A stretch of 31,930 nt of DNA from a virus (taxonomy: Duplodnaviria; Heunggongvirae; Uroviricota; Caudoviricetes). Shown in pieces: positions 11,036 through 11,383 of this stretch; the stretch's first letter is position 1, and each line of letters opens with the position of its first letter. A model generated the notes under the pieces. The model did not search any database. It had not been told where the DNA came from and saw only the letters and a program-made list of their open reading frames with translations. The DNA lies in the IMG/VR virus record IMGVR_UViG_2565956721_000004, positions 1-31,930 of that record. One strand, written 5' to 3'. The position numbers and the translations under genes were made by a program.

Positions 11036-11064
11036 TTGCAACATTGATTTCGTAACGTTATTAT
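11036..11064 (+). promoter_or_regulatory. tRNA-cluster promoter: -35 TTGCAA, 17-bp spacer, -10 TATTAT
   Basis: Read directly; ends about 10 nt before the first tRNA. Confidence 0.5.
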
Positions 11065-11073
11065 CCTGCGCCC

Positions 11074-11149
11074 GGCCCTTTAGCTCAGTGGTGAGAGCGA
11101 GCGACTCATAATCGCCAGGTCGCTGGTTCAAATCCAGCAAGGGCCACCA
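11074..11149 (+). tRNA. tRNA-Ile2 (anticodon CAU, ileX-like; formally could decode Met)
   Basis: Cloverleaf folded by hand: acceptor GGCCCTT/AAGGGCC, anticodon loop CTCATAA, T-loop TTCAAAT, 3' CCA; close to E. coli ileX as recalled. Confidence 0.8.
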
Positions 11150-11150
11150 A

Positions 11151-11227
11151 CCGCCACTAGCTCATCAGGAAAGAGCGTCAACCCTTTAAGTTGAGTGTGC
11201 GAGGTTCGAGTCCCCGGTGGCGGTCCA
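11151..11227 (+). tRNA. Atypical tRNA-like gene, anticodon UUU (Lys) with C at position 33 and 5'-CC start
   Basis: Hand fold: acceptor CCGCCAC/GTGGCGG, U8, D-loop with GG, anticodon stem TCAAC/GTTGA with loop CCTTTAA, T-loop TTCGAGT (one A-C mismatch in T-stem), CCA end. It is only 1-2 nt from its neighbours. Confidence 0.5.
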
Positions 11228-11229
11228 GT

Positions 11230-11305
11230 GCCGACTTAGCTCAGTAGGTAGAGCAACTGACTTGTAATCAGTAGGTCACCAGTTCGATTCCGGTAGTCGG
11301 CACCA
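11230..11305 (+). tRNA. tRNA-Thr (anticodon UGU)
   Basis: Acceptor GCCGACT/AGTCGGC, anticodon loop CTTGTAA, T-loop TTCGATT, CCA; matches E. coli thrU-type tRNA as recalled. Confidence 0.85.
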
Positions 11306-11308
11306 TAT

Positions 11309-11383
11309 GCGGGCATCGTATAATGGCTATTACCTCAGCCTTCCAAGCTGATGATGCGGGTTCGATTCCCGCTGTCCGCTCCA
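11309..11383 (+). tRNA. tRNA-Gly (anticodon UCC)
   Basis: Acceptor GCGGGCA/TGTCCGC (one G-U pair), anticodon loop CTTCCAA, T-loop TTCGATT, CCA; matches glyT-type tRNA as recalled. Confidence 0.85.

Follow-up and report, generated by a model that had tools for sequence, protein, structure and literature searches.

What is a tRNA with the lysine anticodon UUU, the body of an arginine tRNA and a C in place of U33 doing in the tRNA array of a temperate phage? The question is raised by a 31,930-nucleotide (nt) stretch of viral DNA (IMG/VR record IMGVR_UViG_2565956721_000004, positions 1 to 31,930, the whole of it here called the window), which is a lambdoid Escherichia coli prophage of the Qin/phage-21 type. 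Four tRNA genes lie in it between the late antiterminator gene Q, with its terminator tR', and the lysis genes, in keeping with an initial annotation, made from the letters alone, that had placed arrays of lambdoid phages downstream of Q. Based on comparisons to related cassettes, on the published recognition rules of tRNA-cleaving defence nucleases and on codon usage, we find that the second gene, tRNA #2, is a recoded form of argN, a tRNA-Arg gene of Shiga toxin (Stx) phages, and we propose, at a probability of roughly 0.4, that it would serve as a low-efficiency, nuclease-insensitive spare tRNA-Lys.

The four-tRNA cassette and the argN origin of its second gene

By ARAGORN the window has exactly four tRNA genes, each on the plus strand and each above the gathering score of the Rfam tRNA model (29 bits), which bears out the packed array described initially; spacers of 1, 2 and 3 nt separate them, and each encodes its own CCA end (Table 1). 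The first had rightly been read as an Ile2-type CAU gene: it is identical to ileZ of the Stx2a phage F349, is called tRNA-Ile by the Prokaryotic Genome Annotation Pipeline (PGAP), and has C4-G69 and C5-G68, which we take to be determinants for TilS. The last two go beyond what had been noticed, as they are copies of host genes. Thr(UGU) is identical to host thrU, and Gly(UCC) differs from host glyT at one base, position 68, where U stands in for C and forms a G.U pair. The host operon runs thrU-tyrU-glyT-thrT, whereas in the cassette tyrU and both of its spacers are cleanly gone, thrT is missing and only TAT joins Thr and Gly. Other temperate phages have this Thr-Gly module too, either by itself or combined differently, and so does plasmid pSTEC711_1 within a phage-like region. 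In the plasmid, the Thr copy has U16 to C plus a C29.A41 mismatch.

A sigma-70-type promoter-like site precedes the array. It matches 9 of 12 consensus positions, for which the earlier wording of a near-consensus promoter was slightly generous, and since such sites are frequent here (7 in 1.9 kb against 2.2 expected from shuffles, about threefold) the match is weak evidence by itself. The site is invariant across cassette types (window, Stx2a phage and PPompW), and similarity to the Stx-phage cassette starts at its -35 hexamer, at about position 11035, with everything upstream unrelated; the site is therefore part of the mobile cassette and travels with the tRNAs. It may be active in lysogens.

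tRNA #2 starts with 5'-CC (C1-G72, C2-G71) and has the loop CCUUUAA, with C33 at position 11184 and the anticodon UUU at 11185-11187, followed by an A51.C63 mismatch in the T stem. The 5'-CC, the C33 and the mismatched T stem had been singled out at the outset, and all three are present; in addition, the gene has a C31-G39 pair and U73. Its core bases (U8, A14, G18G19 and the T-loop UUCRA) are present in the window copy, its cloverleaf scores above the covariance threshold (44.4 against 29 bits), and 94% of cells are paired on this cloverleaf against 28-53% with slid partners. Single-sequence folding yielded no cloverleaf even for canonical tRNAs and is thus uninformative on tRNA #2. We also considered an ochre-suppressor reading with the shifted anticodon UUA and rejected it, as the shifted stem register breaks pairing.

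By sequence comparison, tRNA #2 is a homologue of the Stx-phage argN, the tRNA-Arg(UCG) that follows ileZ in the ileZ-argN-argO cassette of Stx2a_F349. That cassette occupies the same slot after Q behind the same promoter-like site, and both genes stand directly after identical ileZ copies, share the acceptor stem, identical in its 3' strand, and an identical T arm, and have in common the A51.C63 mismatch and U73. The cassettes differ downstream, where the Stx phage has argO (UCU) and the window Thr-Gly, and within the second gene itself, where argN has U33 and the UCG anticodon. When the Stx2a array is compared with that of PPompW (Ile-'Lys'-Arg UCU), the differences prove clustered: a stretch of 42 nt (tRNA nt 7-48) holds 12 of them, and the 262 nt flanking it hold 4 (Fisher p = 1.3e-8). 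Within this patch the argN loop CUUCGAA has become CCUUUAA, G30:C40 has been exchanged for A30:U40 with compensation, U27.G43 has become U27-A43, and the D and variable loops are altered as well. The outcome equals the host tRNA-Lys loop at every position except 33. It includes U36-A37-A38, the motif for N6-threonylcarbamoyladenosine (t6A), of which 36-UAA-38 is a strict determinant, the enzyme structure showing no base-specific contact to U33 (PMC13276492), and it has U35 rather than the arginine-type C35, a major determinant for arginyl-tRNA synthetase (PMC9976931). In our proposal, the D loop, anticodon arm and variable loop of argN would have been replaced, placing a tRNA-Lys loop with its t6A motif on a foreign scaffold.

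A further difference concerns the acceptor stem, in which the 3-70 pair is G3.U70 both in the Stx-phage argN and in the tRNA #2 allele of PPompW, but G3-C70 in the window copy; G3.U70 is the main alanine identity element. The array itself already has annotations in hundreds of genomes. That tRNA #2 arose as a recoded argN, and that it may be linked to defence evasion, appears to be undescribed, and literature searches on ileZ/argN/argO or on lambdoid tRNA-Lys yielded nothing relevant.

Codon usage and tRNA-cleaving nucleases

Arrays of this kind had been credited with rare-codon decoding, and codon usage agrees with this for part of the cassette. When the open reading frames (ORFs) of the window are compared with 25 host core genes, ACA is enriched 2.0-fold and GGA 2.3-fold, with AUA at 1.4-fold, which is not significant; the idea thus fits Thr and Gly, and Ile2 weakly, and codon supply is a reasonable role for these three members. 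Ile2 (AUA), Thr (ACA) and Gly (GGA) would then decode A-ending codons that are over-used by the prophage or served by low-copy host tRNAs. It does not extend to the UUU gene: AAA is used at 0.91 times the host level, i.e. it is not enriched, and rare-codon supply therefore does not explain this tRNA. A classical codon-supply module comprising the whole array, tRNA #2 included, would be in line with the 1.9-fold enrichment of AAG alongside ACA and GGA, and with Thr and Gly acting through dosage as unmodified host copies. However, AGA and AGG, the most enriched codons at about fivefold, have no matching tRNA in the array, the host has multiple tRNA-Lys genes already, and C33, C31-G39 and U73 are unexpected in a supply tRNA; together with the AAA value, this leads us to consider such a module quite unlikely.

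The UUU anticodon is that of a host tRNA targeted by several defence nucleases: tRNA-Lys(UUU) is attacked by PARIS AriB, PrrC and RorSlfn5, and is a secondary target of P2 Old. AriB prefers Lys(UUU) over Thr(UGU) over Asn(GUU) and cuts at U36AAUC/A41 (the slash marking the cut), cleavage being abolished by U39 to A and reduced by A41 to C or U16 to C (PMC12409363), and phage T5 escapes PARIS via variant Lys, Thr and Asn tRNAs (PMC11464382, PMC12409363). P2 Old, through which P2 exerts its classic exclusion of lambda, excises the anticodon arm and needs a paired CNG motif and A37, with ThrU cut first and Lys(UUU) also; Old-resistant phage tRNAs change exactly the paired CNG motif, and phage tRNA-Thr(UGU) genes, Thr21 of phage 21 included, rescue cells from this nuclease (PMC12445682).

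Read against these rules, tRNA #2 has UAAGUU at positions 36-41, C16 instead of U16, and the stem triplets CAA/UUG at 28-30/40-42, and is predicted at the sequence level to be without both the AriB and the Old determinants. The argN gene, with GAAGCU at positions 36-41 and a CAG/CUG stem, has the paired CNG of the Old motif, and the exchange of G30:C40 for A30:U40 takes away C40 together with this motif. The Thr gene of the window, being thrU, has UAAUCA and CUG/CAG and is predicted to be sensitive.

All three AriB-target anticodons occur across the lambdoid cassettes in this slot taken together, namely Lys and Thr in the window, Asn and Thr in phage 21, and Asn, Thr and Gly in JLK-2012, and the slot tRNAs of the latter two have rebuilt anticodon arms without UAAUC. 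The Asn(GUU)-Thr(UGU) pair of phage 21 sits, like the window array, between tR' and a class II holin gene (annotated S21) and bears the anticodons of Toprim-nuclease targets. It differs in consisting of other tRNAs, in having no separate cassette promoter annotated and in a Thr gene that has diverged from the host, where the window Thr is identical to the host gene; function has been proven for Thr21 only. Phage T5 tRNA-Lys(UUU) is likewise a phage UUU tRNA with substitutions at 39-41 and C16 in place of U16. Unlike it, tRNA #2 is Arg-derived, has C33, C31-G39 and U73, and is known from sequence, while rescue from PARIS has been demonstrated for the T5 tRNA. In its predicted arm, tRNA #2 is the lysine counterpart of the rebuilt slot tRNAs, one of which has a proven protective function, and it fits, as far as its sequence tells, a recently defined class, the phage tRNAs able to evade anticodon-arm nucleases, of which it appears to be a new case.

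Two observations on related cassettes stand beside this. The Asn(GUU) genes of phage 21 (39591-39665) and JLK-2012 have a glyT-like D arm (CGTATAAAGGTCATTAC) and a G73 discriminator, and may thus represent another target anticodon on a borrowed scaffold. In phage SerU-LTIIb, a thrU scaffold with the anticodon UCU, annotated tRNA-Arg, is followed by Gly(UCC), an apparent second anticodon switch in the same cassette family.

For the spare tRNA-Lys we propose the following course. Transcription of the cassette could start at its own promoter, and in the lytic phase Q-modified polymerase reading through from the late promoter pR' could transcribe it as well; RNase P would then cut at each 5' end, in each case releasing the upstream tRNA with a ready CCA 3' end. 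These steps are drawn from general lambdoid and tRNA biology. The tRNA #2 scaffold lacks the sequences on which cleavage of host tRNA-Lys and tRNA-Thr by the Toprim nucleases PARIS AriB and P2 Old depends, and it is for this reason that we regard the spare role as the most likely one. While a resident defence system depletes host tRNA-Lys, the spare would sustain decoding of AAA and AAG, and the other main target would be cushioned through the higher dosage that the additional thrU copy provides.

Allelic variation and competing explanations

The tRNA #2 gene is present in 798 of 5,426 complete E. coli genomes (about 15%). The arrays around it are of at least two kinds, the genes upstream have at least two different annotations, and across about 116 IMG/VR loci neither UUU nor C33 varies. 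No version with U33 or any other base than C33 was found, a scan of viral contigs giving only an unrelated jumbo-phage tRNA-Arg(CCU), and no UCG-to-UUU intermediates were found either, a relaxed T-arm/acceptor pattern matching E. coli and Shigella only among 185,579 species-representative genomes. All six acceptor-stem changes among the alleles keep pairing via G.U, and the anticodon stem-loop and T arm hardly vary, the independent changes being too few for a significant test. In the isolated phage PhiR47_1, whose genome is complete, the allele still reaches a tRNA score. Separately, two IMG/VR contigs hold on their minus strand an isolated 82-nt tRNA-like gene that ARAGORN calls 'Val(aac)'; in acceptor stem and T arm it matches the argN/tRNA #2 family, but its anticodon arm is aberrant and its variable region long.

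Several points weigh against the spare tRNA-Lys. Even in its best allele, the Rfam score of tRNA #2 is marginal beside the 63-74 bits of its neighbours. U33, replaced here by C33, is near-universal and needed for the U-turn (PMC13276492), C31-G39 is the worst pair for lysyl-tRNA synthetase (LysRS), reducing lysine acceptance 100-fold (PMC1483225), and A73 is a lysine determinant whose replacement, here by U73, lowers lysine acceptance (PMC9976931). Among the tRNA-Lys determinants the gene has one, the anticodon U34 U35 U36, and fails at A73 and at the 31-39 pair; from C33, C31-G39 and U73 we predict poor decoding and poor charging. No protective value of C33 itself has been demonstrated, as U33 to C left cleavage by the K. 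lactis gamma-toxin unaffected, the sole anticodon nuclease for which we found such data. Furthermore, the Thr gene equals host thrU and should be cut by the published rules, so that the cassette as a whole is not built for resistance.

The alleles point the same way. Alleles under the Rfam gathering score are carried by 34 of the 116 IMG/VR loci, one representative locus having been scored per allele and weighted by allele counts, while the neighbouring tRNAs always reach at least 54 bits. About half of the 798 carriers have variants of 96-97% identity, either with U8C together with C11U and C4U or with a D-stem base deleted, and a 91% variant additionally has G18A. PGAP leaves these variants unannotated, calling tRNA-Lys for near-identical copies only, even though the flanking tRNA-Ile and tRNA-Thr or tRNA-Arg are annotated. 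Rejection by tRNA scanners, initially named as the sign that would speak against the gene, thus applies to common variants elsewhere, whereas the window copy is accepted. Covariation over 14 alleles is not significant, with one compensated pair among sequences that are too similar. The lesioned alleles point to weak constraint, and expression, lysine charging, cleavage resistance and a benefit to the phage are, for tRNA #2, predictions.

Much of this would also be expected if tRNA #2 were a decaying or functionless argN paralogue, derived by mutation or patchy recombination, with a Lys-like loop that has no role, and persisting through its position inside a compact cassette that is itself useful. 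The marginal covariance score, the poor function that C33, C31-G39, U73 and A51.C63 all predict, the high-frequency alleles with core lesions below tRNA thresholds next to intact neighbours, and the lack of significant covariation are in agreement with decay, and, given how few independent changes there are, the constancy of C33 and UUU is statistically not compelling. Random damage, on the other hand, would not be expected to yield clustered differences that make up an exact Lys-type loop with 36-UAA-38 and a compensated pair, or acceptor-stem changes that without exception preserve pairing. Nor does decay sit easily with retention at the above frequency in different array contexts and behind different upstream genes, or with a phage 21 slot that holds analogous rebuilt tRNAs, one of proven function. 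We regard decay as the main rival, only slightly less probable than the spare tRNA-Lys. The initial annotation had named both evasion of host defences and a pseudogene: the missing AriB and Old determinants and the rebuilt slot tRNAs speak for the former, the marginal score and the lesions for the latter, and the two are not fully separated.

The evasion idea had also been phrased as a decoy. Such a tRNA #2 would bind tRNA-Lys-directed effectors (e.g. PrrC or a Schlafen nuclease) or LysRS and would not be used productively. In its favour, mutations at the 31-39 pair left the Km of LysRS largely unchanged while catalysis fell (PMC1483225), the loop is Lys-like save for position 33, tRNA-Lys(UUU) is targeted by several systems, and non-productive complexes have been suggested by the AriB authors as a possible role of viral tRNAs. 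However, the absence of the AriB recognition sequence makes binding of AriB unlikely, and binding of any effector is putative and would require high abundance of tRNA #2, so that a decoy seems improbable to us.

A different target is offered by the tail-chaperone genes of the prophage. The G-like ORF (22642-23028) ends in ...GTT AAA AAA AAG TAG, with a slippery heptamer at 23019-23025 that no tRNA but tRNA-Lys(UUU) reads, and the -1 frame stays free of stops over some 100 codons, to about 23327, an arrangement of the G/GT type; the lambda slippery site GGGAAAG is not present at the prophage G/T junction. As -1 slippage on A-AAA-AAG depends on the properties of tRNA-Lys(UUU), tRNA #2 might tune this programmed frameshift. 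The connection is purely circumstantial, however, and AAAAAAG is not over-represented in the window; we hold this role to be highly improbable. A broader proposal, in which tRNA #2 is deliberately non-canonical, either as a decoy or modulator of defence effectors or LysRS or as a setter of the A-AAA-AAG frameshift, and in which lambdoid phages routinely move target anticodons onto unrelated scaffolds, strikes us as unlikely. Possible moves of this kind are Lys onto an Arg scaffold, Asn onto a Gly-like scaffold and UCU onto a thrU scaffold.

Prophage setting and wider meaning

From left to right, the prophage has DicF, a sok/hokD module, a DUF968 gene, RusA, Q, a class II holin gene, lysozyme, and HK97-type head and tail genes (Table 1). 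The Q gene carries the label 'bacteriophage antitermination protein Q' from PGAP in a near-identical genome. At its end, the candidate pR' agrees in position with the annotated pR' of phage 21, which lies immediately after Q, and the layout of candidate pR' and tR' corresponds to that annotated in phage 21, the tRNAs of which begin right after the terminator. The tR' hairpin was listed by an automated terminator scan on the minus strand only. Sub-threshold isrK/isrJ-like matches lie at 10879-10951, and the short terminated RNA that would result, weakly similar to isrK and isrJ, two small RNAs of Salmonella prophages, is probably a 6S-like late leader.

Table 1. Features of the prophage around and beyond the tRNA cassette (window coordinates).
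Feature	Position	Strand	Evidence
DicF small RNA	175-226	-	71.5 bits
Candidate defence gene, 932 aa	4409-7207		Cap4/LmuA-like nuclease N-terminus, AAA ATPase domain, C-terminal SEC-C motif
sok/hokD type I toxin-antitoxin module	7316-7640	+	sok 110 bits
Late antiterminator Q gene; upstream boundary of the region	10168..10863	+	Pfam PF06323 Phage_antiter_Q, E = 8.6e-92
Candidate late promoter pR', TTGCAA-17-TATATT, overlapping the end of Q	10847..10875	+	promoter scan; inferred
Candidate pR' with putative short terminated RNA	10847-10955
Candidate tR', GC-rich hairpin followed by a T run; would end a short 6S-like late RNA	10924..10953	+	inverted repeat and sequence AAAACCCGCCCACAAGCGGGTTTTTTT
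Sigma-70-type promoter-like site, TTGCAA-17-TATTAT	11036..11064	+	promoter scan
tRNA-Ile2 (CAU, ileZ type)	11074..11149	+	ARAGORN; Rfam 72.5 bits; PGAP tRNA-Ile
tRNA #2 (UUU), argN-family scaffold	11151..11227	+	ARAGORN 'Lys'; Rfam 44.4 bits; PGAP tRNA-Lys for identical copies
tRNA-Thr (UGU), equal to host thrU	11230..11305	+	ARAGORN; Rfam 73.8 bits
tRNA-Gly (UCC), host glyT with one change	11309..11383	+	ARAGORN; Rfam 62.8 bits
Structured non-coding spacer between array and holin gene, 257 nt; strong hairpins 11390-11435 and 11443-11516	11384..11640	+	folding and inverted repeats
Class II holin (N-terminus MKSMDKIS...); downstream boundary of the region	11677..11892	+
YfbU-domain ORF	13736-14275	-

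The spacer between array and holin gene folds with z = -4.96 over 11384-11560. It accompanies the array in phages 689R5, 606R7 and PhiR47_1, is absent from phages whose homology begins only near the holin, and might act in processing, as a terminator or as a small RNA. The holin itself presumably resembles S21. Farther off, the domains of the 932-residue protein in the early region mark it as a candidate prophage-encoded defence gene. On the opposite strand between the lysis and terminase genes lies the YfbU-domain ORF, and strain AR_0089 has a GNAT acetyltransferase at that place. We considered a connection with the GNAT toxins that act by acetylating aminoacyl-tRNA and dropped it, as this GNAT is not in the window and the corresponding ORF encodes the YfbU-domain protein.

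The annotation pattern means that prophage tRNA counts differ between strains for annotation reasons alone, intact copies of tRNA #2 being labelled tRNA-Lys and the common variants dropped. If the gene does provide a spare tRNA-Lys, countermeasures against PARIS-, Old- or PrrC-type systems would be carried by common temperate phages, beyond large lytic ones like T5, with a bearing on competition among prophages and on the prediction of phage host range. Placing a targeted anticodon on an unrelated tRNA body would then be a simple route to nuclease resistance, and tRNA #2 would offer a natural C33 tRNA with which the strictness of the U33 rule could be probed.

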